Below, piece after piece: positions 35,153 through 63,440 of a DNA stretch of 64,000 nt. Each line of letters starts with the position of its first letter. The first letter of the stretch is position 1. The translations under genes were made by a program, and so were the position numbers. The notes beneath the pieces were generated by a model, which was not told the origin of the DNA, did no database searches, and saw nothing but the letters and a program-made list of their open reading frames with translations. Origin of the DNA: Escherichia phage KKE7M; the sequence record PQ356295.1; one strand, given 5' to 3'.

Positions 35153-35209
35153 TTTCTACTCCTCATAGATAAAATCTATTAAAAACCTGCTATCAATCAG
35201 TATAAACAG

Positions 35210-35310
35210 TTTTACTTTTCGTAAAAAACATGCTACCCTAATCTTATATACCGAGCGATAGCGAGGTAGAGAATATTCCATGTTATACATGGAAAGAGTA
35301 TATGTAATGT
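35210..35310 (+). repeat. conserved noncoding element, copy A (promoter-like TTTACT-N17-TACCCT plus GAGCGATAGCGAG)
   Basis: Shares 18-mer AAAAACATGCTACCCTAA and extended similarity with 63039-63150. Confidence 0.5.
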
Positions 35311-35359
35311 TACTAACTCTATAACTAACTATATACTCTTTATATCTTACTTACTACTC

Positions 35360-36046: not shown

Positions 36047-36294
36047 AAGATTGTGATCCTTAGCTCATTTTCTAAGGTATGTCTCACACACTCTTTGAAA
36101 TTGTTATCAATATACACCACACGTACTCCATGAGGTGTGTCTTTACATTCAAACACATTATATACAGTATCAGATAAGACATGTTGTACGTTTACTTGTC
36201 CAATGCCATCTTTAACCACAACCATTACTTTCAGTAAACTTGTATGGTTTTTAACTTCATCTTCTACGTATGCTACAACATCTTTGATATTCAT
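36043..36294 (-). CDS. hypothetical protein (83 aa)
   Basis: ORF. Confidence 0.45.
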   Translation of the reverse strand: MNIKDVVAYVEDEVKNHTSLLKVMVVVKDGIGQVNVQHVLSDTVYNVFECKDTPHGVRVVYIDNNFKECVRHTLENELRITIL

Positions 36295-36590
36295 GGTTTC
36301 TCCTGTTTAAGTACGATATAAGATTGACGAGATTTCCATCGCCCTATCTTAACAAGGCAAATAATGCCTCTCTTTAACAAATATTTCATATCTTCGTCAT
36401 AAGCTGTTTGCAATTGCCACTTACTGTTAACAGGAAGCGAACCATGTACCCTTAAATGAGCTAACAAATACTTTCTTCGCTCTTTTCCATAAGGCAGGTA
36501 TTGCCATTCTTTCTTTGATACAGGTTCATGTACTTTGCGATGCCAGTAAGTAAGGTGTCTTCTTTTATGTAAACCCCTATTCCTTACCAT
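36291..36590 (-). CDS. hypothetical basic protein (99 aa)
   Basis: Arg/Lys/His-rich. Confidence 0.45.
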   Translation of the reverse strand: MVRNRGLHKRRHLTYWHRKVHEPVSKKEWQYLPYGKERRKYLLAHLRVHGSLPVNSKWQLQTAYDEDMKYLLKRGIICLVKIGRWKSRQSYIVLKQEKP

Positions 36591-45329: not shown

Positions 45330-45416
45330 GGTGATTCCTCGTTTACCGTTTAAAATGATTTGCCCTACGTGATAAATAATAATGTAAGCGCGATCCGGTG
45401 TCAATAAGAAAGTTAA

Positions 45417-45653
45417 TTATTTTGCATAATCAATAACAGCGCAGATTTTATCATTTACATCTTGTAAATCAAAAGCATAGGCGATCTTACCTTGCAATTT
45501 CCCACGGGTGAAACAGATACGATAAACGCCGTTTTTACTATCCTCTTCTGATTTTAGTATTTTTGCAACCGTTGCAATTAACAGATCATCAGAGTAAGCG
45601 ATAAAGCCACCACGTAAAATAGGTGATTTTTTGAGGATCATGACTTCTTTCAT
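45417..45653 (-). CDS. hypothetical protein (78 aa)
   Basis: ORF; promoter TTGACC-N17-TAATAT upstream (rc of 45702-45730). Confidence 0.45.
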   Translation of the reverse strand: MKEVMILKKSPILRGGFIAYSDDLLIATVAKILKSEEDSKNGVYRICFTRGKLQGKIAYAFDLQDVNDKICAVIDYAK

Positions 45654-46074
45654 TTTCTTTTTCCTGTTTTCGTTTTGGGTATGTTCTACCCTCTAAAAAC
45701 AATATTAAACTGCTATGATTTATCGGTCAATAGATGAGATTGTAAAGATTTGATAGTTTATTCCTTTGATGTTTTGTTGTTTGATAGTTATTAGCTATCA
45801 ATATATAGCGGGATCTTCCGGTGATTATCTTCCCCTGTCCCCAGGTGCCGCCCGTTCCATAATAATAATCAAAAGCAGGGTAAAAGGCAAGATAAAAAGC
45901 AAATTATTTCCTATGTGCTTTAAACGCTCTAAACAGCTTTATAACAGCTTTTTCATCCTGGTAAGGGGATTAATCATCCCTACCTTGTTTAAGCGGTTAC
46001 AGTCGGTTTTAGATGGTTTTACGCCACCTTTACGCCTATTCTTTACGTGTTGTTTCCATCGTGAAAAAAGAATA

Positions 46075-46107
46075 CAAAAAAGGGCGCTTAGTGCGCCCCT
46101 TTCTTTT
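46075..46107. terminator. bidirectional terminator hairpin GGGCGC-TTAGT-GCGCCC
   Basis: A tract before and T-rich tract after. Confidence 0.55.
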
Positions 46108-46115
46108 ACCGTGTA

Positions 46116-46505
46116 TTAATATTCGTTATAATACATCGCTAATTTTTCATCAAAAGCCGATTGACGATCAGCATACTCCCAAAACATTTCCTGATCCTGT
46201 TGGTCATCTTCATCCATCATGTTAAACTGTGCTACTTCCTGGTAAGTGATCGCCATATTATAACGATAGGTGATCTCTTCTGCGATGTTTTCCGGTAAAG
46301 ATGATTCTACACTGTCTAACAGCATATTTAACATCATTTCAGCCGCTTTTTCATCATTATCAAAGCAGTAAGCAGACCATGCCGCATGATGCTTATTCTT
46401 CATCTTTGCAATCAAGCCATTGACTAAAAAAGGCGCTACGTTGTTAACGATACCCTGTAAAGATTGGAATTTTTCAACGTTAGAAACAGAAACCAGGTTG
46501 CGCAT
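46116..46505 (-). CDS. hypothetical protein (129 aa)
   Basis: Start refined; track start ATG lies inside the 5' stem-loop. Confidence 0.5.
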   Translation of the reverse strand: MRNLVSVSNVEKFQSLQGIVNNVAPFLVNGLIAKMKNKHHAAWSAYCFDNDEKAAEMMLNMLLDSVESSLPENIAEEITYRYNMAITYQEVAQFNMMDEDDQQDQEMFWEYADRQSAFDEKLAMYYNEY

Positions 46506-46528
46506 AGTATTTACCTTTTTGATTACCT

Positions 46529-46587
46529 GGCGGGAAACCATTTCCCGCCTACGTGGTAAATAATACCATACTGGGGATCGGTGTCAA
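46529..46587 (-). promoter_or_regulatory. promoter plus 5' stem-loop cassette (TTGACA-N16-TATTAT then GGCGGGAAATGGTTTCCCGCC)
   Basis: Read directly; hairpin 46529-46549. Confidence 0.55.
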
Positions 46588-46593
46588 TACTTT

Positions 46594-46980
46594 TTATTCA
46601 ATATAAATCAAATTATCTTCACCAATGTAAGCATGCACCGATGGCATTAATTTAGCGGCATTTGTTAGGCGGTTCGCCGTGTTAGTGGTGTATATTTCAG
46701 GGCGATCCCAAAAGCCTACGCCGTGACCGTTACGGGTAAAATGTAAATCATTCCCGATCTGGTTTGCTGTAGCGCCGTCGCTCATTGCCTCAGAGATAGC
46801 TGCAACATTGGCATTACAAAAGGCGGTCACATCGCTGGTAATACGTTTCAGGGCGCTAGAAGAAAAATCATAATCGTCTAGATTCTCAATATATTCCCCA
46901 TTGTGATCCGTCGCTGGTTCGGCAAAAATAAAGGCTTCTTTATAGCCGTTGATCATTTCGTTAATGATTTCTGTTTTCAT
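46594..46980 (-). CDS. hypothetical protein (128 aa)
   Basis: ORF. Confidence 0.5.
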   Translation of the reverse strand: MKTEIINEMINGYKEAFIFAEPATDHNGEYIENLDDYDFSSSALKRITSDVTAFCNANVAAISEAMSDGATANQIGNDLHFTRNGHGVGFWDRPEIYTTNTANRLTNAAKLMPSVHAYIGEDNLIYIE

Positions 46981-47192
46981 GCTGTACGCTCAACAATAAT
47001 AATGGTTTGCGGGATCTCGTTTTCTACTACTATCAAGGCTTTTTTCTGCGTGATAGATATCTTTACCCGCTTCAGCGTGGCGGTAAAGTCTTTCATTTCG
47101 TCACGTGGTGTTTTAGTGCAATACCAGATCTCAGGTTTACCTATTTGCAAGCCGCGTAAAAATTCCGTTTTACCTGTCTTATTCGTGATCAT
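46977..47192 (-). CDS. hypothetical protein (71 aa)
   Basis: Start refined to ATG with AAGGTG RBS. Confidence 0.45.
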   Translation of the reverse strand: MITNKTGKTEFLRGLQIGKPEIWYCTKTPRDEMKDFTATLKRVKISITQKKALIVVENEIPQTIIIVERTA

Positions 47193-47202
47193 TTGTTTCA
47201 CC

Positions 47203-47307
47203 TTATCCAATACCGTGGGAAGATAGGATCATGTTAGCCATAGTTGCAATCACTCCAACCGATAACGCCAGGCCCACTATTACAACCGTGAAAATTTTCT
47301 CTAACAT
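47203..47307 (-). CDS. small hydrophobic peptide (34 aa)
   Basis: Preceded by promoter/stem-loop cassette; short. Confidence 0.3.
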   Translation of the reverse strand: MLEKIFTVVIVGLALSVGVIATMANMILSSHGIG

Positions 47308-47325
47308 GATGCTACCCTCATTAGT

Positions 47326-47387
47326 GGGCGTTGCCTTATTGCCCCGCCCTATGTGATACATATTATCAGCTTATTAGCCGTTGTCAA
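47326..47387 (-). promoter_or_regulatory. promoter plus stem-loop cassette (variant hairpin GGGCG...CGCCC)
   Basis: TTGACA (rc of 47382-47387) and CCTATGTGATACAT box. Confidence 0.45.
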
Positions 47388-47492
47388 TTACTTTTTTAAA
47401 CTTCTTTCAAAGAGAAGATCATCGATCTCAGAAACAATAAGCGTTATCAAAGGAATAATAACCGCCGCGCACATCATGGTAAGAATAATCAT
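47388..47492 (-). CDS. small hydrophobic peptide (34 aa)
   Basis: MIILTMMCAAVIIPLITLIV...; preceded by cassette at 47511. Confidence 0.3.
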   Translation of the reverse strand: MIILTMMCAAVIIPLITLIVSEIDDLLFERSLKK

Positions 47493-47510
47493 TTTAGTTC
47501 TCTCTATTCT

Positions 47511-47570
47511 GGCGGGAAACCATTTCCCGCCCTACGTGGTACACTTTACCAGATAACCGCATATTGTCAA
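47511..47570 (-). promoter_or_regulatory. promoter plus stem-loop cassette (GGCGGGAAATGGTTTCCCGCC)
   Basis: Hairpin 47511-47531; TTGACA rc at 47565-47570. Confidence 0.55.
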
Positions 47571-47571
47571 A

Positions 47572-47766
47572 CTATTTTTTACAAGGGATCAGTAAACTTC
47601 TCGCTACTGCTTCACGAAAACCTTTACTTTTTATTAGATCTATTGTTGCAGGGTGACAAGTAAAAGCCTTTGACCATTTTTGATCACCTGGTTTACGGGC
47701 GAAAATGTATACTTCCCCGTCAATTTCATCCCAACGAGTATTGCTTGTTAGTTTTTTAAGCGCCAT
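47572..47766 (-). CDS. hypothetical protein (64 aa)
   Basis: Start refined to MALKKLTS. Confidence 0.45.
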   Translation of the reverse strand: MALKKLTSNTRWDEIDGEVYIFARKPGDQKWSKAFTCHPATIDLIKSKGFREAVARSLLIPCKK

Positions 47767-47789
47767 GATGATTTCTCTTTTAGTTGTGA

Positions 47790-47845
47790 GCGGCACTATT
47801 GCCGCCCTACGCAATACATTCTACCCTATTTATAATTGTTGTCAA
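47790..47845 (-). promoter_or_regulatory. promoter plus stem-loop cassette (GCGGCAATAGTGCCGC variant)
   Basis: TTGACA-N16-TAGAAT then hairpin. Confidence 0.5.
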
Positions 47846-47846
47846 A

Positions 47847-48116
47847 CTATTTTTTCAAGCTCGCCCAGTCAAAACACGGCGGGATCTCGTTAAAACTTGT
47901 GCCCTGTAAAGCACATAATTTTTTAGCAATAGCCGCCGTGACCTGGCGCTGTACGCGCGGATCTGCTACTGATTGGAGAAAGTAGGCGGCTTTATATGTG
48001 ATCATGCTTTCGCCTGTTTCCTTGTTAACATGATGCACTATTTTAGCCTTATCATCTTTTACCAGGGTGTAACCGGATTCGATGGCCTTGATTGCAACGT
48101 CCAATGATATTTTCAT
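47847..48116 (-). CDS. hypothetical protein (89 aa)
   Basis: ORF. Confidence 0.45.
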   Translation of the reverse strand: MKISLDVAIKAIESGYTLVKDDKAKIVHHVNKETGESMITYKAAYFLQSVADPRVQRQVTAAIAKKLCALQGTSFNEIPPCFDWASLKK

Positions 48117-48162
48117 GATTTATCTCTTTATTGATGGCGGGGAATACTCCCCGCCTTATTAA

Positions 48163-48333
48163 TTACTCTTCATCGTCGCCGTTGTAGTATTCAATGCCGT
48201 TTTCATCGGTTACGGTAATATTAACGCCACCGATAGCAACACGATCACGGGCAAACGTCATGGCTTCATTTAAATCTTCAGACCAAAAAATATTGTGACC
48301 TTTGCGCGATACGTAAAACATAGTCGGGATCAT
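48163..48333 (-). CDS. hypothetical protein (56 aa)
   Basis: Below cutoff; preceded by cassette at 48357. Confidence 0.35.
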   Translation of the reverse strand: MIPTMFYVSRKGHNIFWSEDLNEAMTFARDRVAIGGVNITVTDENGIEYYNGDDEE

Positions 48334-48356
48334 GATTTGTTTCTCTTCTGCTGTGA

Positions 48357-48416
48357 GCGGGAAACCATTTCCCGCCCTATGTGATAAACTTTACTACGTT
48401 GTTTGCCTACTGTCAA
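48357..48416 (-). promoter_or_regulatory. promoter plus stem-loop cassette
   Basis: Hairpin GCGGGAAACCATTTCCCGC 48357-48375; TTGACA rc 48411-48416. Confidence 0.55.
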
Positions 48417-48417
48417 A

Positions 48418-48702
48418 TTATTTTTTAATGTTTTGCCCTACAAAATTGATCACATCTTTAAGCTGTTTCTCAGTCATGATCGTGCCTGGTAGTTCCTCTT
48501 TGATTTCTTGCGGTAAATAGATATTACCGCGCCAGGTTAATAAACAACCGTTTTGATCTTCGCAGATAGAATAAGAGAAGATCCACTCATTATCATTCTC
48601 AAGCTCCCAAAAGCACAAAAAATCTTCTTTCCCTAAGTTTTCAACGGTTAAGCATAAGCCGCGACGTGCTGCATAGTTGGAAAGTGCTTTTGTGATCTTC
48701 AT
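48418..48702 (-). CDS. hypothetical protein (94 aa)
   Basis: ORF. Confidence 0.45.
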   Translation of the reverse strand: MKITKALSNYAARRGLCLTVENLGKEDFLCFWELENDNEWIFSYSICEDQNGCLLTWRGNIYLPQEIKEELPGTIMTEKQLKDVINFVGQNIKK

Positions 48703-48721
48703 ATCTTATCTCTTCTGTTAA

Positions 48722-48784
48722 GGCGGGAAAACCATTTCCCCGCTCTATGAGATACAATATACCCCTTATCAGGTGTGCTGTCAA
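48722..48784 (-). promoter_or_regulatory. promoter plus stem-loop cassette
   Basis: Hairpin 48722-48743; TTGACA rc 48779-48784. Confidence 0.5.
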
Positions 48785-49108
48785 TCAATAATCTTTAATA
48801 TTTTCCACATTTACAAAAGTGTGTTTATTTTCTAAGTTTTCGCCGTACCATTGCCCAATGTTGATTTCTGCGGTGCGCAACCAGGACATGCCGCGTTCTA
48901 TCTTTTTGCTTGCAATGTCGATCCGGCTTTTACATAGTGCTTTCGCTTGCAATGTAAAAACACTATTGCCCTGTAATGCTTCCAGGTCATCATGTGCAAG
49001 GCGATACTCTTTAAAGCCTGATTCTATCATTTCAATAGCATCAAGTAAACGCGCGCGATGATAGAAAAAATCAGAGTTATCCAAATAAACACCGATCACA
49101 GATTTCAT
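48785..49108 (-). CDS. hypothetical protein (107 aa)
   Basis: Start refined to MKSVIGVYL. Confidence 0.45.
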   Translation of the reverse strand: MKSVIGVYLDNSDFFYHRARLLDAIEMIESGFKEYRLAHDDLEALQGNSVFTLQAKALCKSRIDIASKKIERGMSWLRTAEINIGQWYGENLENKHTFVNVENIKDY

Positions 49109-49437
49109 AATTTTACCCTTTTGTTTGCGGCCTTTGCCGTTTTCAAGATATAGTTTAAAGCATAACAAAAAATTGTCAAGCCTTTAAAGCGTACAACTAT
49201 AAAACCTATTAAAACACAATGTATAACAACATGGCTATAGTAGCAATACAACATAAAGCCATGCTTGTTTTCCTTCCTTCCTCGTATGCTGGATTTATTA
49301 CGCTATATTGTACGGGAATAATTTTCATGCTGTTTCCTTAATGTCTTAAAACGTGGTTTACAATAGAAACAAGTATACAGAAGAAAAAAGATCCTGACAA
49401 TAAGATCCCGAAAAATAAATGTAAATAGGGCATGGTT

Positions 49438-49740
49438 TTACTCCTTAAAAAAATCATTGACAATTAAACTGATAACGCCCAGCACCAGATCACCAGGTAG
49501 CGCCGCGCTTTCGTTGTTGCTTGTTTGCACTTCCTCACTAGTACCAGCATGATAGATTGCATGGTAAGCAATAGTATAATAACCTTTCGTTATTTCTTTA
49601 AGATTAATGATTAGCACGTTATTTGTTTCATCTTGAAACAATTTAGCGGTGATAGTATTGTTTTCTTTTACACTATCGACTTTTATTGATGGATCATTTA
49701 CACCAGAAAAAAGAAAAAACGTTTTAGCTATGCCGTTCAT
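49438..49740 (-). CDS. hypothetical protein (100 aa)
   Basis: ORF with GGAG RBS. Confidence 0.45.
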   Translation of the reverse strand: MNGIAKTFFLFSGVNDPSIKVDSVKENNTITAKLFQDETNNVLIINLKEITKGYYTIAYHAIYHAGTSEEVQTSNNESAALPGDLVLGVISLIVNDFFKE

Positions 49741-49787
49741 GTAGTTCTCCTTTGTTGTGTGTATCTTATAACGTGCTTTCTATGTTG

Positions 49788-50189
49788 TCAATCTTTTATT
49801 TCGGTGCATTTTGCTAGGGTATACGTTGCAAGTGCTGACACTAGTTTTTCATTGTTACGATCTGCGGCTGTACTGTGTACTTTTTGGATACTTTTTAACC
49901 ACGGTGTAAAATTTTGAGTAGTGAGCACACTGGTAATAATTTCACATGGCACGTTTTCATTTAAGCCATTAACAATAGATTTATCTATTTTTGCCGTTAA
50001 TTGTGTAACAGCACCATAAGCGATCATGTGTGAATCCTCCATGATTTCATCGGGGATCGCATTATTAATGATCATGACGTTTTCCATTGCATCAACGGCG
50101 CTTAATTCTGCTACTGTGGAGGATATCGCCGCGTGAGATGTTCCAACCATGCCAAAAGAGATTAAACCAGCGATCAATAATTTTTTCAT
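49788..50189 (-). CDS. secreted/periplasmic protein with signal peptide (133 aa)
   Basis: MKKLLIAGLISFGMVGTSHA signal-like N-terminus. Confidence 0.5.
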   Translation of the reverse strand: MKKLLIAGLISFGMVGTSHAAISSTVAELSAVDAMENVMIINNAIPDEIMEDSHMIAYGAVTQLTAKIDKSIVNGLNENVPCEIITSVLTTQNFTPWLKSIQKVHSTAADRNNEKLVSALATYTLAKCTEIKD

Positions 50190-50197
50190 TTCTTGCC

Positions 50198-50440
50198 TCA
50201 TATATGTTTTATTGAGATTATATTGTCACTATATACAACGTTTTTCAACGTGTCAATAAAAATTTTATTGTCTTCAATCCCCAGGATCACGCCGCTAGTT
50301 ATAAAGCCATATTGATCACGATATCTGGCGCATAACCTTTGCCCCTGGGCTAGTGCCTTGCTTATTTCGTCTAATTTCATTTTTAAAGCTCCTGTAAAGC
50401 CGTCTAACGTTGATTTATAGGCTTGCCCTGGCGTTACCAT
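50198..50440 (-). CDS. hypothetical protein (80 aa)
   Basis: ORF. Confidence 0.45.
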   Translation of the reverse strand: MVTPGQAYKSTLDGFTGALKMKLDEISKALAQGQRLCARYRDQYGFITSGVILGIEDNKIFIDTLKNVVYSDNIISIKHI

Positions 50441-50472
50441 TGCCTATGGGTAACAAGCCTCTATATAAGCTA

Positions 50473-50497
50473 AAAGGGCGCTTATTGCGCCCTTTTT
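50473..50497. terminator. terminator hairpin AAAGGGCGC-TTATT-GCGCCCTTTTT
   Basis: Perfect hairpin with T tract. Confidence 0.6.
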
Positions 50498-50498
50498 G

Positions 50499-50636
50499 TT
50501 ATTCGTTCCAGTGTCTTTTTGTGCTGCGATCTCTTTTTGTTTTGTTCCGCTTATCGCCTTTCTTGGTAATCTCTTCGTTCCAATTTTTACGCGCCTTGCT
50601 GCGGTTGAATTTTTCGATCTGCTGTGATGCGTTCAT
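50499..50636 (-). CDS. small highly basic protein (45 aa)
   Basis: Lys/Arg-rich; short. Confidence 0.3.
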   Translation of the reverse strand: MNASQQIEKFNRSKARKNWNEEITKKGDKRNKTKRDRSTKRHWNE

Positions 50637-50651
50637 GTTTTTTCCTCTTAA

Positions 50652-51011
50652 TTACGCAACGTTATGCTGTTTTGCCAGGGTTACAATCATGCTTGCAATA
50701 TATAACCAATAATTTTCCCTCTCACGGGTAACGGTTGTTTCTTTGCTTGTTTCTTTTATGTACTTCCATTCAATTAACAAGTGATCGATCTCGTTATAAT
50801 CAAAAGCAATATTGACTTCTGACGGTAAACCTTGTAACCATGAGGCTATTGCCTTGATCACGTTATAATTGTAACGTTTTTGATTATCGGGATACCAGTA
50901 TTCAGAGTTAAAACGGCGCATCAGTTCGGTGATCTTTTCTTTTTCGGTTGTAGTACCATCAAAAGAAATAGCCGACACAATGTAAGTTTTAATTGCTTTT
51001 ACTGATTTCAT
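50652..51011 (-). CDS. hypothetical protein (119 aa)
   Basis: ORF. Confidence 0.5.
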   Translation of the reverse strand: MKSVKAIKTYIVSAISFDGTTTEKEKITELMRRFNSEYWYPDNQKRYNYNVIKAIASWLQGLPSEVNIAFDYNEIDHLLIEWKYIKETSKETTVTRERENYWLYIASMIVTLAKQHNVA

Positions 51012-51031
51012 AATCTTATCTCTTTATTGAT

Positions 51032-51090
51032 GGCGGGAAACCATTTCCCGCCGTTGTTGTTACTTTACTTATAAATGATGCTACTGTCAA
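51032..51090 (-). promoter_or_regulatory. promoter plus stem-loop cassette
   Basis: Hairpin GGCGGGAAACCATTTCCCGCC 51032-51052; TTGACA-N17-TAAAGT. Confidence 0.55.
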
Positions 51091-51097
51091 GCGAATA

Positions 51098-51268
51098 TTA
51101 TTTATTTTTTAACGTTAATGTTCCCAGCTTATCAGCGTGACGCAGACCAGGAAAGATCCATTTTCCTGATTCATCTTTCACCGGGGCTTTAAGCGTAGCG
51201 CCCAGGTTGGCGGCGTTAACTTTACGTGCAACGTTGCGAGCGGCTTCACGGGTGGCGAAAGTGATCAT
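51098..51268 (-). CDS. hypothetical protein (56 aa)
   Basis: Below cutoff; preceded by cassette at 51292. Confidence 0.35.
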   Translation of the reverse strand: MITFATREAARNVARKVNAANLGATLKAPVKDESGKWIFPGLRHADKLGTLTLKNK

Positions 51269-51291
51269 GATGTTTCCTCTTCTCTTTGTTA

Positions 51292-51354
51292 GGCGGTGGG
51301 CTATTCCACCGCCTTAATGAATATAATTTACTTTATTGATGGCCCTGGAGTCAA
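51292..51354 (-). promoter_or_regulatory. promoter plus stem-loop cassette (hairpin GGCGGTGG...CCACCGCC)
   Basis: TTGACT-N18-TAAATT then hairpin. Confidence 0.5.
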
Positions 51355-51372
51355 GGCCATCTAAAAATAAAT

Positions 51373-51714
51373 TTACTCGTTTTCTTCCAGCTCTGAAAGA
51401 TCTTCTTTCACTTCTTCGAGCTCTGTCTGCAATTCTTGGTACTCTTCATCGTCCTCAATATCCAGGCTGCCGATGTAGTCGCTAAATCCGCAGCGGTAAG
51501 CGATAGGATCTAACTCCTTGAGGATACGCGACGGAAGAAAAGAAATGTCTCCGATCATAATTTCGCCGTAGATCTCGTCTAACCATTCATCATAGTTTTC
51601 GTCGTACTTGTCCTCGTCGATTTCAAAGTTATCGATCTTGTTCTCAAGGTCTGCGATCTGTTTTTTCAGCGCGGCGATCTGCATAGCTTTTTCTGCGGCG
51701 GTCATAGTAGTCAT
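51373..51714 (-). CDS. hypothetical acidic coiled-coil protein (113 aa)
   Basis: ORF. Confidence 0.5.
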   Translation of the reverse strand: MTTMTAAEKAMQIAALKKQIADLENKIDNFEIDEDKYDENYDEWLDEIYGEIMIGDISFLPSRILKELDPIAYRCGFSDYIGSLDIEDDEEYQELQTELEEVKEDLSELEENE

Positions 51715-51739
51715 GGTGTTTTCTCCTTTTGTGTATTCT

Positions 51740-51793
51740 GGGAAGTTTTCCCGTTTACGTGTTTAAGTATATCGATTTTAGTTATCTTGTCAA
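51740..51793 (-). promoter_or_regulatory. promoter plus short stem-loop (GGGAA-GTT-TTCCC)
   Basis: TTGACA rc at 51788-51793. Confidence 0.4.
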
Positions 51794-51801
51794 TATTATT
51801 T

Positions 51802-52029
51802 TTAGTTTAACTGATCCAGGCACAACAAGCGATCAACATTTAGATCGGTTAGGCTAATCGTTGGCACTTGGTAGGCTTCGATGTACTCAACGCTCGACCA
51901 TTGCCCAAAGTTAGCGACCGCCCAGCTATTCAAGGAGGAGTGAAGATCATCCCCTTTCTTCTCGGTGATAACTGCTACTACCTGGGATATTCCAACCGTG
52001 CCGGATACGCGAACAATAACGATAGCCAT
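51802..52029 (-). CDS. hypothetical protein (75 aa)
   Basis: ORF. Confidence 0.45.
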   Translation of the reverse strand: MAIVIVRVSGTVGISQVVAVITEKKGDDLHSSLNSWAVANFGQWSSVEYIEAYQVPTISLTDLNVDRLLCLDQLN

Positions 52030-52051
52030 AATGTTAACCTTTCTTTGATTT

Positions 52052-52111
52052 GGCGGGAAACCATTTCCCGCCCTATGCGATAAACTATACCAGATTAAAA
52101 AACGTTGTCAA
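52052..52111 (-). promoter_or_regulatory. promoter plus stem-loop cassette
   Basis: TTGACA-N16-TATAGT then GGCGGGAAATGGTTTCCCGCC. Confidence 0.55.
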
Positions 52112-52120
52112 CTGCTTTTA

Positions 52121-52360
52121 TTACATTCCTACCATAGCGGCGCGGATACTGGTTTTACTGAATTTATAGCCATCTGGCGTAGTATTTTGGCCCATTTCGT
52201 TAAGTAGTGACATCATTTCACGCGCGGCGTTATCTTTATTGTTGTTCACGGCTATAAATTCTTTTGCCATATTATAAAAACCTGGATCGTTATTAATCCA
52301 AAGGCTTACATTCCAATGAGTTTTATTTTTGTGACCGTTGTACATTTTAGATTTAGCCAT
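52121..52360 (-). CDS. hypothetical protein (79 aa)
   Basis: ORF. Confidence 0.45.
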   Translation of the reverse strand: MAKSKMYNGHKNKTHWNVSLWINNDPGFYNMAKEFIAVNNNKDNAAREMMSLLNEMGQNTTPDGYKFSKTSIRAAMVGM

Positions 52361-52384
52361 GATGTTAATCTCTTTTTCAGTGAG

Positions 52385-52442
52385 GCGGGAACTATTCCCG
52401 CTCTCGATATAAGTATTATATGCTTTTTATTCGTGCTGTCAA
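52385..52442 (-). promoter_or_regulatory. promoter plus stem-loop cassette
   Basis: TTGACA-N16-TATAAT (perfect -10) then GCGGGAATAGTTCCCGC. Confidence 0.55.
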
Positions 52443-52448
52443 TGCTTT

Positions 52449-52814
52449 TTATAAATCTTTTTTGCGTTTAACATCGCTTGCATGACTGTATACAGCGATC
52501 CCATTGTCACGGCAAAAACGGGAAAGGTAAGCATAATTTGAAAAGTCTTTACCTTCCAGGTTGATAACCTTGCTAAACTCTTCCAGGGCAACGGTATCAA
52601 AATGATCACCATAACCATATTGAAACGGAACGTTAACGACTTCAATCAGTTTACCGCCGATCTCAACGTCAACCATCAAAGAGAAATAAGTATTACCATA
52701 CGACTTTTGAAACCAGCGACGGGCGCTAATATGTACCGCTTCAATGCTGGATAGCTCAATTTTAGCAGTGTTAGCCAGGGTAGCATAAGCAGAAACATTG
52801 ATATTTTTAGCCAT
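52449..52814 (-). CDS. hypothetical protein (121 aa)
   Basis: ORF. Confidence 0.5.
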   Translation of the reverse strand: MAKNINVSAYATLANTAKIELSSIEAVHISARRWFQKSYGNTYFSLMVDVEIGGKLIEVVNVPFQYGYGDHFDTVALEEFSKVINLEGKDFSNYAYLSRFCRDNGIAVYSHASDVKRKKDL

Positions 52815-52909
52815 AGTCTTTAATCTCTTTTGATTAGTTAGGAGTATTCCCGATAAAAGTTATTATGCTTGTGCTATCGTTCGTTGTCAATAGCACAAGA
52901 CTAAAACTT

Positions 52910-53089
52910 TTAACGATAATCATCATAGGCTTTATTGACCTGGCGAATATAGCATTCAAAAGCTAGATCAATAGATTTATATTCACGGATATAATCACCA
53001 TAGGAAACCACATACATTTCTATAGCTTCCTCATATGCCAGGATGATAGAATCTAAACCTACGATCTCAGTCTTTGCAATAATAGCCAT
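52910..53089 (-). CDS. hypothetical protein (59 aa)
   Basis: Below cutoff; own promoter TTGACA (rc 53149-53154) and TATAAT. Confidence 0.35.
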   Translation of the reverse strand: MAIIAKTEIVGLDSIILAYEEAIEMYVVSYGDYIREYKSIDLAFECYIRQVNKAYDDYR

Positions 53090-53176
53090 GCTTTTATTCC
53101 TTAGTAATGTTTCAATCTATATAAGCATTATAGCTTACTGATTTCAGGTGTCAAGTGATTTTTTATTTCACCTTAT

Positions 53177-53232
53177 GGGGCGTTGCCCCGCTTTATGTGG
53201 TACATATTACGGGGCTTATTTGCATATGTCAA
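53177..53232 (-). promoter_or_regulatory. promoter plus stem-loop cassette (GGGGC-GTT-GCCCC)
   Basis: TTGACA rc 53227-53232. Confidence 0.45.
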
Positions 53233-53235
53233 GCC

Positions 53236-53790
53236 TTACACAATGCAATTTTCATAATTTTTTAGGGCTTGTCTTTTTTCCTCTTCTGTCGGCATGTATG
53301 GCTGGATCTCTTCCTCTTCCAGAGTAGGCATGATTTCTTCCTCTTCCTCCTGGTCGCCCTGGTCTTCCTCTTGCGCTATGGTAACAAGTTTATTGATCTT
53401 CTCCTGGGCTTTAATCAATTTTGCATCTAGCACCATTTTAGCGGTGTTGTATACAGTCCAGGCCATGCGCTTTTCTTCGTATGCCTTATCTAGTGCGGCT
53501 AATTTAGCGGGATACTCTTCCAACACCTTAAAAGCCGGATCAATGTTGTACAAGGGATTATTTTTAGCGTCATCGCTTGGATCTGCGGCGCTTGCAATGT
53601 CAGCGTTACCATTCGCCAGCCATCCAGGACGAACGGATCGCGTCCTGGTGTTGCCGTTGCTCTTTGCCGCTCGATTTCCTATCTGCTCCCCGCTATACCC
53701 TACCATGTGATCGATCATGTCATCTGGTATTATGCGCGGATCATTTGCGTCATGCTTTACCCAGGACTGGATCACATATTCACGCCCCAT
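53236..53790 (-). CDS. hypothetical protein with acidic C-terminal tail (184 aa)
   Basis: ORF. Confidence 0.5.
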   Translation of the reverse strand: MGREYVIQSWVKHDANDPRIIPDDMIDHMVGYSGEQIGNRAAKSNGNTRTRSVRPGWLANGNADIASAADPSDDAKNNPLYNIDPAFKVLEEYPAKLAALDKAYEEKRMAWTVYNTAKMVLDAKLIKAQEKINKLVTIAQEEDQGDQEEEEEIMPTLEEEEIQPYMPTEEEKRQALKNYENCIV

Positions 53791-53791
53791 G

Positions 53792-54052
53792 CTAGTTCGC
53801 CTCTTCTGTTAGTAGTTTACATACCTTAAACATGCTTGCAGCGTCTTTTGACGGTAGCCAGCCTATTCGATACACTCCAGGATCTGGATTAGTTACATCA
53901 GTCAGTTGCGCGTTGCGATGATTAAAAATAGTGTAACCGCCGCCAGCACGGGGATAAACATTATCTTTAAACCTGATAGCGTATCTCGCCAGGTCGAACG
54001 TTGTAGCATGTTCAAAAGCGATCACATTATCAAAAACTTTTAGAAAAAACAA
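53792..54052 (-). CDS. hypothetical protein (86 aa)
   Basis: TTG start after GGGGAGGA. Confidence 0.45.
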   Translation of the reverse strand: MFFLKVFDNVIAFEHATTFDLARYAIRFKDNVYPRAGGGYTIFNHRNAQLTDVTNPDPGVYRIGWLPSKDAASMFKVCKLLTEEAN

Positions 54053-54220
54053 GATTATCCTCCCCAGCGTTTAAAGCCCGTTGCACGGTTATTTTTTAGC
54101 TCTCGTTTTAGTCTCTTGCAACGGTTTACAAGTGCAAACCGTGCCGGAGTCGTAACAGTAGCGCCGTTTTTGGTATGAATACTCATTACATATTGTTTCA
54201 TAAAGTTTTATCCTATATAA

Positions 54221-54273
54221 GCGGGAACAATTCCCGCTTTAAGATAGCTTATCAGGTTTTAGTGCAATGTCAA
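54221..54273 (-). promoter_or_regulatory. promoter plus stem-loop cassette
   Basis: Hairpin GCGGGAACAATTCCCGC 54221-54237; TTGACA rc 54268-54273. Confidence 0.5.
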
Positions 54274-54279
54274 CCGTTT

Positions 54280-54642
54280 TTATTCGTAAATTTTACCGCT
54301 TTCTACCCATACCATAACACGGCGCATGTTATCCCATGCATCTTGTTGCAGATTTAAGGCATGCAATTCTTCCGTGGTGCTCATACCTAGAACGGGCTTG
54401 CTATATGTTACAAAGAGATCGCCAGCATATTCATAAGCCAGGGTAAGATCACATTGAATCATCTTTTTAATCATAGCATCAAGCATCATATTAGCGGCAT
54501 GTTGATCACGTTTCAGCGGTAACGTTGCGATCTGTGTGCGATAGCTTTCGATCCGTGCATCCACTGCATCACGCGAAAGGTTTTTCACGTCATCGCGGAA
54601 AGATACCAGATTAAACATGATAGTATTGATTTGCTTGCTCAT
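54280..54642 (-). CDS. hypothetical protein (120 aa)
   Basis: ORF. Confidence 0.5.
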   Translation of the reverse strand: MSKQINTIMFNLVSFRDDVKNLSRDAVDARIESYRTQIATLPLKRDQHAANMMLDAMIKKMIQCDLTLAYEYAGDLFVTYSKPVLGMSTTEELHALNLQQDAWDNMRRVMVWVESGKIYE

Positions 54643-54664
54643 TGTGTTACCCTTTCTTTGATTT

Positions 54665-54724
54665 GGCGGGAAACCATTTCCCGCCTTATGTGGTATATAT
54701 TACCAGATTATTTTTCAGTGTCAA
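54665..54724 (-). promoter_or_regulatory. promoter plus stem-loop cassette
   Basis: Hairpin 54665-54685; TTGACA rc 54719-54724. Confidence 0.55.
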
Positions 54725-54727
54725 GCC

Positions 54728-55000
54728 TTAAAACAAAAATGCTATATCTTGCGCTTTTAGTGTAGTGTCGATCATTTTCGGGCTTTTATAATCGACAAAG
54801 CGCGCGGTTTTTTCAATAACGAAGCCGAGGTAATCTTGTTTATTGAAATCACATTCTTTTTTAAATGTTTCCCGTGCCACTGTGATCGCTGCGTCCAGGG
54901 ATAAACGTCCATCAATATTGATGTTAGCGAAAGATCCGCCACCGCGCATAGGTTTACCAGTGATACCCTTTACGATCATTGATGCGCTATATGATGCCAT
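54728..55000 (-). CDS. hypothetical protein (90 aa)
   Basis: ORF. Confidence 0.45.
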   Translation of the reverse strand: MASYSASMIVKGITGKPMRGGGSFANINIDGRLSLDAAITVARETFKKECDFNKQDYLGFVIEKTARFVDYKSPKMIDTTLKAQDIAFLF

Positions 55001-55024
55001 GATTATTTCTCTCTTCTGTTATGA

Positions 55025-55080
55025 GCGGCACTATTGCCGCCCTATGTGATACATCTTATCAGATTAAAAAACGTTGTCAA
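55025..55080 (-). promoter_or_regulatory. promoter plus stem-loop cassette
   Basis: TTGACA-N16-TAAGAT then GCGGCAATAGTGCCGC. Confidence 0.5.
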
Positions 55081-63009: not shown

Positions 63010-63038
63010 AAGTATTTTGTAAAGTTTTGTGGAGAGTA

Positions 63039-63150
63039 TTGACTTTTTCAGAAAAACATGCTACCCTAAACCTGAAAGGTGACGAGCGAAGCGAGTTAGT
63101 ATTCTCTATAGATATTGTTCCTGTCACTCATGGAGGGGCAGGAACAGAGT
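63039..63150 (+). repeat. conserved noncoding element, copy B (TTGACT-N17-TACCCT plus GAGCGAAGCGAG)
   Basis: Same architecture and shared 18-mer as 35210-35310. Confidence 0.5.
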
Positions 63151-63173
63151 ATATTACTGTATAGGAGAATACT

Positions 63174-63440
63174 ATGGATGTTACTACACTAAGGTTTATA
63201 CTTCTCTTCTTACTTATAGTTATAGGATTAATTGTTATACCCTATCTATATGTCTACATGTTATCTTGTAAGTATGGTTATGATCGTATACCATTTTACT
63301 ATTTAATACCTGTCTTAATTATCTATCTATTTCTCTTTTGTAGATATTGCCCTGAATTAGTCCCTGAACACTGGAAGTTAGAACCTGTTGAAGTTTACTA
63401 TTGTGAATGGAAGACAGAATACAGATCTAACAGTAATTAG
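63174..63440 (+). CDS. membrane protein (88 aa)
   Basis: Hydrophobic N-terminal half; GGAGAA RBS. Confidence 0.45.
   Translation: MDVTTLRFILLFLLIVIGLIVIPYLYVYMLSCKYGYDRIPFYYLIPVLIIYLFLFCRYCPELVPEHWKLEPVEVYYCEWKTEYRSNSN

Follow-up and report, generated by a model that had tools for sequence, protein, structure and literature searches.

The window, that is the whole 64,000-nucleotide stretch of Escherichia phage KKE7M (PQ356295.1) that was analysed, shows 97–99% identity around copy A of the element described here to phi92, JohannJBalmer and some 50 further genomes of Justusliebigvirus (Stephanstirmvirinae), and by its sequence it is that of a phi92-like myovirus of the genus Justusliebigvirus. 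Its layout, which was read by mapping onto the annotations of JohannJBalmer and phi92, comprises a plus-strand block of nucleotide-metabolism genes up to ~31.4 kb (in the orientation of the window), a minus-strand cluster of ~70 small early genes running from ~55.0 down to 31.5 kb, two short islands at 55.3–60.7 kb and, from 60.85 kb, a plus-strand operon of more than 35 kb with genes for a helicase, an anaerobic RNR, a primase/helicase and a DNA polymerase. Scans for tRNA and tmRNA found none in the window or in L009, an island-bearing contig that is discussed below.

Two copies of a short cassette are found here. Copy A (35.2 kb) is flanked, as an earlier note on this DNA had it, by two minus-strand genes, and lies on the opposite strand in a 207-bp gap between the early genes phi92 gp023 and gp024. 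Copy B (63.0 kb), which had rightly been placed upstream of a plus-strand gene, is located 2.2 kb inside the long plus-strand replication operon and 107 nt upstream of the ATG at 63174, where a gene for an 88-aa predicted membrane protein begins. The features of the two copies are as follows.

35211..35216, plus: copy A -35 hexamer TTTACT (homologues TTGACT/TTTACT/TTGACA/TTGATT in 44/44 distinct copies)
35231..35239, plus: copy A extended -10 TGC-TACCCT (TACCCT 35234-35239), 17 bp past the -35; invariant in alignment A2
35246, plus: copy A predicted transcription start, the 7th nt after the -10, placed by promoter geometry
35247..35270, plus: copy A predicted hairpin H1, with TACC/GGTA outer stem, tandem G.A/A.G, GC/GC inner pairs and GAUA loop
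35252-35265, plus: copy A box CGAGCGATAGCGAG within H1
35276..35294, plus: copy A predicted hairpin H2, TTCCATGT/ACATGGAA, with compensatory changes in homologues (UUUCAUG/CAUGAAA)
35293..35341, plus: copy A predicted hairpin H3, AAAGAGTATAT/ATATACTCTTT, an 11-bp perfect inverted repeat that includes AGAGTATAT, followed by U-rich ATATCTTACTT
63039..63044, plus: copy B -35 hexamer TTGACT
63059..63067, plus: copy B extended -10 TGC-TACCCT (TACCCT 63062-63067), spacer 17 nt
63074, plus: copy B predicted transcription start, placed by promoter geometry
63080..63098, plus: copy B predicted hairpin H1, with TGAC/GTTA outer stem, tandem G.A, GC/GC inner pairs and GAA loop
63083-63095, plus: copy B box CGAGCGAAGCGAG within H1
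63098..63110, plus: copy B leader segment AGTATTCTCTATA, predicted to pair with the ribosome-binding region 63160-63173; in Justusliebigvirus B copies only
63116..63146, plus: copy B predicted hairpin H2, TGTTCCTGTCACTC/GAGGGGCAGGAACA, followed by AGAGTATAT at 63146-63154
63160..63440, plus: ribosome-binding site TATAGGAGAATACT and 88-aa gene (ATG 63174), whose homologues are preceded by B copies elsewhere

The motifs on which the earlier note had based its claim of a duplication are present where it had put them. Both copies contain TT(T/G)ACT, a 17-nt spacer, which in copy A ends AAAAACATGC, and TACCCT. The shared exact 18-mer AAAAACATGCTACCCTAA occurs twice in the window, at 35224 and 63052, the chance expectation being 0.09 matches with up to three mismatches. 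A further shared box, AGAGTATAT, is found at 35295-35303 in A and 63146-63154 in B, and recurs in inverted form within copy A at 35331-35339. The GAGCGA..AGCGAG box is also common to both, but the T/A substitution that had been described between them is not, as GAGCGATAGCGAG in A corresponds to GAGCGAAGCGAG in B through a 1-nt deletion in B. When the two loci were aligned, similarity was found to reach far past the 18-mer: the local alignment runs over 35208-35353 in A and 63035-63216 in B with a score of 54, against 20.3±3.0 for shuffles (maximum 33, n=300), and the core from the -35 hexamer through the hairpin is identical at 47 of 64 positions. The tail of A bears a weak likeness to the first ~40 nt of the gene after B, with a score of 27 that 14 out of 1000 shuffled sequences equal or exceed. 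A may hence have arisen by truncation of a unit that, like B, had a promoter, a leader and a gene, for which the likeness is only suggestive.

Some features of the records themselves are also of note. Small ORFs of 44 aa (35156-35290, minus) and 45 aa (63027-63164, plus) overlap cassettes A and B, and JohannJBalmer bas62_0168 and bas62_0091 and phAPEC8_0059 are hypothetical-protein annotations over cassettes; these ORFs are probably spurious, a matter of practical weight as current annotations place them there. The JLBYU50 record (OK272470.1) begins exactly in the copy A intergenic region (positions 1-218), which is ~12 bases longer there (218 vs 206), and this start may correspond to a true terminus of the genome or to an arbitrary choice of the first base in the record. 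Four or five records that resemble phi92 are labelled 'Campylobacter phage'; among them MG065639, MG065645, MG065656 and MG065689 (host Campylobacter jejuni) are 98–99% identical to E. coli phi92-like phages, and these records are probably mislabelled or contaminated.

Distribution in phages and in an integrative island

Copies A and B are members of a conserved control module of ~100–150 bp, composed of a predicted promoter and an RNA hairpin, in phi92-like E. coli phages. The search of a whole genome for further copies, which the earlier note had proposed, brought out a third. A profile built from the first copies collected finds exactly three in the complete JohannJBalmer genome, the third with E 8e-9 and the next match with E 0.8. 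This copy C (MZ501084.1 136,971-137,046; L024 16772-16847), which has a GCA loop, lies ~2 kb beyond the left edge (position 1) of the window on the strand opposite to A and B, at a divergent junction upstream of the genes for PRPP synthetase (Prs) and NAMPT, a tRNA array and the late genes.

In other genera the cassette is detectable by blastn and its flanks are not, with the B core 79% identical to Phapecoctavirus. The identity of the A core amounts to 85–87% in Klebsiella phages and, in Citrobacter phage Tr1, to 76%. The same A, B, C trio is present in phAPEC8 and Tr1, and the three copies occupy conserved positions in several genera of the Stephanstirmvirinae. In diverged contigs A is always antisense, in a 150–200-bp gap between co-directional small genes, B always precedes an 88–90-aa gene on the same strand and C is always found where genes diverge, with a ~71-aa gene and that for Prs after it.

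Many diverged copies came from scanning IMG/VR, genomes in GTDB and metagenomes from JGI with sequence patterns, and 44 distinct copies were collected in all. The patterns fixed TGCTACCCTAA and the ends of the box and left the -35 hexamer and the spacing free; invariance at the fixed positions is thus partly circular, and is tested independently only by the copies that came from blastn or nhmmer, namely phAPEC8 A/B/C, FKP3 A/B, Tr1 A/C and JohannJBalmer C. The pattern matches L010-L012, L014, L034, L036 and L064 were judged to be chance or unrelated, L034, L036 and L064 being one Chloroflexi locus that adjoins a GTCATTCCGAGCGAAGCGAGGAATC palindromic repeat. At L013 5829-5917, in an 84-kb IMG/VR contig, TGCTACCCTAA is followed by a perfect 7-bp stem enclosing GAGCGAAAGCGA; this site lacks a TTGACT-like -35 and has a terminator upstream, and may be a distant relative or a chance match.

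None of the records examined annotates the element. Rfam 15 gives no matches at gathering thresholds over the whole window, and only chance-level ones at E ≤10 around both copies and the island leader. The cassette has no match in 5,426 complete E. coli genomes that would suggest host mimicry, and a literature search on the sequence of the element, or on promoters and transcriptomes of these phages, found nothing relevant.

Outside the phages the cassette is carried by an island of Enterobacteriaceae, represented by an IMG/VR contig (L009 3248-13165), a metagenome contig that is 99.75% identical to it (L063 1-10006) and a ~80% identical stretch of a 505-kb contig from a Scandinavium MAG (L031 1-7138); L032, with a GAAA loop, is a more distant relative. 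The island is ~10.5 kb in length and is bounded by a 43-bp direct repeat, one copy of which lies inside tRNA-Leu(CAA). Its cassette, in which the H1 loop is GAA or GUAA, H2 resembles that of A and AGAGTGTAT is present, is located directly 3' of a tyrosine integrase gene and is adjoined downstream by a ~170-nt structured region; in all, 750–900 nt of non-coding DNA follow it, and then a perfect TTGACA-17-TATAAT promoter. The genes past this promoter include two without known function, one that is endonuclease VII-like and one for a DUF5906 primase-like protein, and further genes encode an HTH regulator, a resolvase and an Eco29kI restriction-modification system. Nothing but the cassette is shared between the island and the phage collection, in which its 161-aa and 155-aa proteins have no homologues, and this fits a module that is read by a diffusible factor. 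The island can be interpreted as a satellite-like or defence island that captured, or donated, a phage regulatory module, and it would use the cassette either to sense the phage factor or to titrate or decoy it. The hairpin nature of the box, the third copy, the spread over several genera and the island, and the possible truncation of A had all been overlooked in the earlier note.

Predicted promoter and hairpin of the cassette

The promoter-like architecture has comparative support, as all 44 distinct copies keep the -35 hexamer and its spacing; promoter activity is predicted from this conservation. The hexamer is TTGACT in 28 copies, TTTACT in 10, TTGACA in five and TTGATT in one, and the spacer between -35 and -10 measures 17 bp in 39/44 and 18 bp in the other five. 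The extended -10, which is in part fixed by the retrieval patterns, reads TGC-TACCCT in 43 of the 44 and TGG-TACCCT in one, and in every copy TACCCT is followed after 11–16 nt by the box C-GA-GC-(G N1-2 A)-GC-GA-G.

TACCCT had been called atypical for sigma70, and this stands in so far as it matches TATAAT at only 3/6 positions, which is why a simple sigma70 scan calls neither copy A nor copy B. It is nevertheless sigma70-compatible: it keeps A-11 and T-7 together with the extended -10 TG, and so makes a plausible though weak sigma70 -10. A C at -13 and a C at -8 are features of sigmaS-preferred promoters, and presumably the cassette -10 looks more like a sigmaS -10. Invariance of TGCTACCCTA in three paralogues and several genera is beyond what RNA polymerase alone should need; at the positions that the retrieval patterns fixed, this invariance is partly circular.

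The ordinary early promoters of the same phage read TTGACA-17-TAtAAT and are followed by a G+C-rich hairpin. These constitute a second, much larger class of promoter with 5' hairpin, similar to the PeSL cassettes described below, which serves small early genes on the minus strand at 45,376-55,080 of the window and is laid out as an A-rich tract, TTGACA, 16–17 bp, TAtAAT, ~7 nt and a hairpin such as GGCGGGAAATGGTTTCCCGCC. Six of these hairpins (46529-46552, 47511-47534, 48356-48379, 51032-51055, 52052-52075 and 54665-54688) are near-identical, with 0 expected by chance.

A short inverted repeat straddles the predicted start in most copies (35240-35252 and 63068-63083 in the window), in the forms ACCT/AGGT, ACCC/GGGT, AAAC/GTTT and GTAT/ATAC; one half of it is upstream of +1, and hence untranscribed, so the repeat is left unexplained. 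A minus-strand promoter overlapping copy A (TTTTAC-16-TATACT) was dropped because it is not conserved in FKP3 or other lineages.

The box is the centre of hairpin H1, which begins 1–6 nt past the predicted transcription start. The base 5' of GAGCG is always C, and the box can be written C-GA-GC-[loop]-GC-GA-G, in which a closing C-G pair, a tandem G.A/A.G and two G-C pairs form a core beneath the loop. The loops of the 44 distinct copies (GAA in 21, GAUA in 16, GCA in four, GAAA in two and GUAA in one) all fit G(N1-2)A. Outside the core the stem varies in sequence: among 27 copies the adjoining position pairs as CG 15 times and as AU 10 times and stays unpaired twice, and the third outer pair is formed in all but one (UG 13, UA 8, CG 3, AU 1, GU 1). 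The covariation score for H1 is 0.291, compared with 0.140±0.019 for shuffles, none of which reaches it in 500, and slid partners score no higher than 0.19. RNAfold gives the shape ((((..((...))..)))) for most single sequences, and RNAalifold recovers H1 unaided from the A-type sequences, along with an H2 that shows compensatory change. Within the window H1 is found only inside the cassettes, and a structure-aware model of the hairpin matches only A and B there (E 6e-12 and 2e-9; next E 0.58). A K-turn reading of the tandem G.A was rejected as the 3-nt bulge 5' of GA is lacking.

The G.U and G.A pairs are possible on the plus strand only, and in this analysis they are the strongest argument for a plus-strand transcript of the cassettes, even from copy A, which minus-strand genes flank. 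The reverse complement of copy A folds almost as well as the plus strand, so folding of a single sequence cannot decide the strand.

Leaders and possible mechanisms

Beyond H1 the leaders differ. The predicted RNA of copy A (35246 to ~35345) folds into H1, H2 and a long H3, and then ends in a U-rich stretch (-27.1 kcal/mol, z -3.6 vs shuffles). The stem of H3 has 11 bp and is A+U-rich, and AUAUCUUACUU comes after it. An RNA of ~100 nt may end here, and a plus-strand scan calls no terminator at this place; in the related A copies L054, L055 and L062 an H3-like stem, seen by eye, is kept with a changed sequence, AGAGGUAUA/UAUACCUCU. The earlier idea that A would be antisense or drive a small RNA holds on sequence grounds, as A is a stand-alone antisense unit in every lineage checked and has two conserved predicted plus-strand hairpins.

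The leader of copy B is predicted to fold with -33.3 kcal/mol (z -3.4 vs shuffles), with AGUAUUCUCUAUA (63098-63110, just past H1) pairing to the ribosome-binding region UAUAGGAGAAUACU (63160-63173). This pairing, which is not conserved in other genera, may act as a translational switch in the modelled fold, and AGAGUAUAU (63146-63154) could compete for AGUAUUCUCUAUA. The B copies of Klebsiella phages have instead a long hairpin and then UUUUCUUUU directly before the ribosome-binding site, and they alone have a conserved terminator or attenuator after H1 (hairpin and TTTTCTTTT). The C leaders are 190–250 nt long and very A+T-rich, and have a second promoter-like site inside. A role as Rho-utilisation sites was dismissed, the leaders being without consistent C>G bias.

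The interpretation that we favour, though tentatively and at a little less than an even chance, is that the cassette would couple a promoter to a hairpin read by a trans-acting factor, which would probably co-regulate several transcripts. The promoter (-35 TTGACT-like, 17-bp spacer, extended -10 TG and weak TACCCT) would be used by the host RNAP, and the short hairpin of invariant core would start within the first ~10 transcribed nt. The factor, most likely phage-encoded, would read the hairpin sequence on the nascent transcript or on the elongating polymerase, and would act in the manner of lambda nut/boxB or, alternatively, control RNA stability. An invariant non-canonical core, a loop that only takes the form G(N)A and the capture of the module by an unrelated element together argue for such a factor rather than for mere stabilisation.

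Units A, B and C would be regulated together. B would be an internal promoter and leader within the long operon for replication and nucleotide metabolism, and C would head the Prs/NAMPT-tRNA-late unit; as both lie in or at the heads of units of more than 30 kb, a nut-like role in elongation or antitermination is the most attractive version. A stands alone in a small gap, always on the strand opposite to the flanking genes, and its product is thus probably a short, structured RNA without coding function, which would be antisense to the early-gene cluster or would serve as a decoy RNA; alternatively A would start antisense transcription into the early cluster. In its fullest form the scheme has the hairpin as the loading site of a phage-encoded elongation/antitermination or RNA-binding factor that would switch on replication, the Prs/NAMPT-tRNA-late unit and an antisense RNA for early shutdown, with the satellite-like tRNA-Leu island having captured the cassette to sense infection or decoy the factor; all of this together is unlikely. 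A Pfam search of ten neighbouring small proteins, 'putative transcription factors' included, gave nothing significant as a binding protein. The 99-aa early protein phi92 gp019 (36291-36590, minus) has an Arg/His-rich N-terminus, MVRNRGLHKRRHLTYWHRKVH, and no Pfam match. By analogy this N-terminus recalls the arginine-rich RNA-binding motifs of N proteins, and it is only a lead to the hairpin-binding factor.

A simpler view, which appears somewhat unlikely, is that these are ordinary constitutive promoters for the host RNAP, that no factor is involved, that the hairpin only protects from 5'-end-dependent decay and that the copies look alike through duplication and gene conversion. It would fit the placement of the hairpin 1–6 nt from the predicted 5' end, the many early promoters of this phage that also have a 5' hairpin directly downstream and the lineage-specific variants shared by copies in the same genome (L005 B and L006 C share an identical GCCGAGCGAAGCGAGGGGAGATTCT; phAPEC8 A and B share AAAAATATG and a GATA loop). 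For protection alone, however, the three paralogues in different genera would not need to keep a core of 12 nt unchanged, non-Watson-Crick pairs included, and the early-class hairpins vary freely in sequence; nor does it account for the invariant TGCTACCCTA or for the retention of the module by an integrative island. A and the island copy could also be genes for trans-acting base-pairing sRNAs with a 5' seed, such as enterobacterial sRNAs typically conserve, in which case B and C would have only the promoter and 5' end of the ancestor in common. Copy A has a predicted promoter and no ORF, as an sRNA gene would, there is no downstream gene on its strand, and its RNA has three hairpins and a U-rich end; the island cassette is likewise followed by its ~170-nt structured region. 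We nevertheless regard this reading as quite improbable, as the most conserved nucleotides are inside the hairpin rather than single-stranded, the only site in the window that is complementary to the box is the opposite strand of the cassettes themselves, a canonical terminator (G+C-rich stem and U run) is absent, and the 5' end is no different in B and C, which are leaders of mRNAs.

The box might instead act as DNA, either as an ops-like hairpin of the non-template strand, formed early in elongation, that would recruit a NusG/RfaH-like or another factor, or as an operator at +8 to +22 that a DNA-binding regulator would occupy. The GATA form AGCGATAGCGAG matches ops12, GGCGGTAGCGTG, at 9/12 positions, and its C3:G8 pair can close a 4-nt loop into a mini-hairpin as in ops (PMC5995543). 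Like ops sites, the cassettes stand at the front of long operons, and a direct repeat is a second way to read AGCGA(N)AGCGA. The bases read by RfaH are nonetheless lost, with A in place of G5 and no T6 where the loop is GAA or GCA; an A replaces T11 at the pause, and the Rfam JUMPstart model gives no match. The outer pairs covary, with many G.U among them, and extend the hairpin to 19–25 nt, which exceeds a 10–11-nt bubble, and a 12-/13-nt variation in spacing is easier to accommodate in a loop than in a direct repeat of DNA, so that this reading is very doubtful. Least credible is a role for the cassette promoters in priming DNA replication, in the way of T4 oriF/oriG or the T7 primary origin transcripts. 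The A and C leaders are indeed followed by very A+T-rich stretches (GC 0.21–0.31), and C lies at the divergent junction of the two largest co-directional gene blocks, but B has no A+T-rich unwinding region, nothing iteron-like is common to the copies and covariation in the hairpin would be unaccounted for.

Comparison with known systems

The cassette is real, conserved and unannotated, and combines an unusual invariant -10 with an ops/boxB-like RNA hairpin, for a function that we infer. Phages similar to phi92, phAPEC8 and rV5 are widely used as therapy and model phages. As the cassette heads the main non-early units and is antisense in the early cluster, it offers a concrete, testable handle on the regulatory switch of these phages. 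Its presence in an otherwise unrelated island hints at an unrecognised satellite-helper or defence relation with a virulent myovirus, and proof of a dedicated factor, or of a link between satellite and helper, would make the cassette of high interest.

The nut site of lambdoid phages consists of boxA and boxB and is read by the N protein. The cassette resembles it in having a short leader hairpin, with a G(N1-2)A loop that may count as GNRA-like, just past the promoter, in occurring as identical elements on otherwise different leaders and in being present only a few times in each genome, where long transcription units begin. In the sequence of its stem and loop the cassette is, however, unrelated to boxB, alignment A2 shows no conserved single-stranded motif like boxA next to H1, no N-like protein was identified among the neighbouring proteins, which have no family match, downstream terminators are inconsistent and A has no genes to antiterminate into.

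A small antisense RNA within a phage early operon also has precedents in lambda oop and P22 sar. Similar to these, copy A is small, independently promoted, directed against an early operon and located in or next to an intercistronic gap. The oop and sar RNAs have canonical terminators and overlap the coding sequences or ribosome-binding sites of their targets, whereas the structured part of A, ~100 nt in length, is confined to the gap that follows gp023, and its promoter and 5' hairpin recur in two mRNA leaders.

With the ops/JUMPStart element, whose consensus is GGCGGTAGnnTG and in which RfaH reads G5 and T6 with a pause at T11 (PMC5995543), the cassette shares the 9/12 match to ops12, the geometry of a mini-hairpin (GC stem and G..A-closed loop) and a place in the leaders of long operons. 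Unlike in ops, G5, T6 and the pause base T11 are not conserved, and the hairpin, which lies no more than ~10 nt from the start, is extended by covarying pairs that include G.U and indicate RNA.

The promoter-early stem-loop (PeSL) cassettes of T4-type phages were described by Arbiol et al. 2010 (PMC2839356). Their stem-loops, with stems of G/C runs, serve as terminators and have no set position with respect to the promoter, and ~50 copies per genome are found in hyperplastic regions before ORFans (PMC2839356). Both they and the present cassette are repeated intergenic units of ~100 bp with a sigma70-like promoter and a stem-loop, and in both the copies in the same genome look homogenised or recombined. 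In contrast to the PeSLs, the cassette has three copies per genome at fixed, conserved loci, its hairpin is always just past the start and has the invariant non-canonical core CGAGCG..GCGAG, no U run follows the hairpin and the -10 is TACCCT. The PeSL is the nearest kind of element to have been described, and the cassette differs from it in copy number, type of stem and function.
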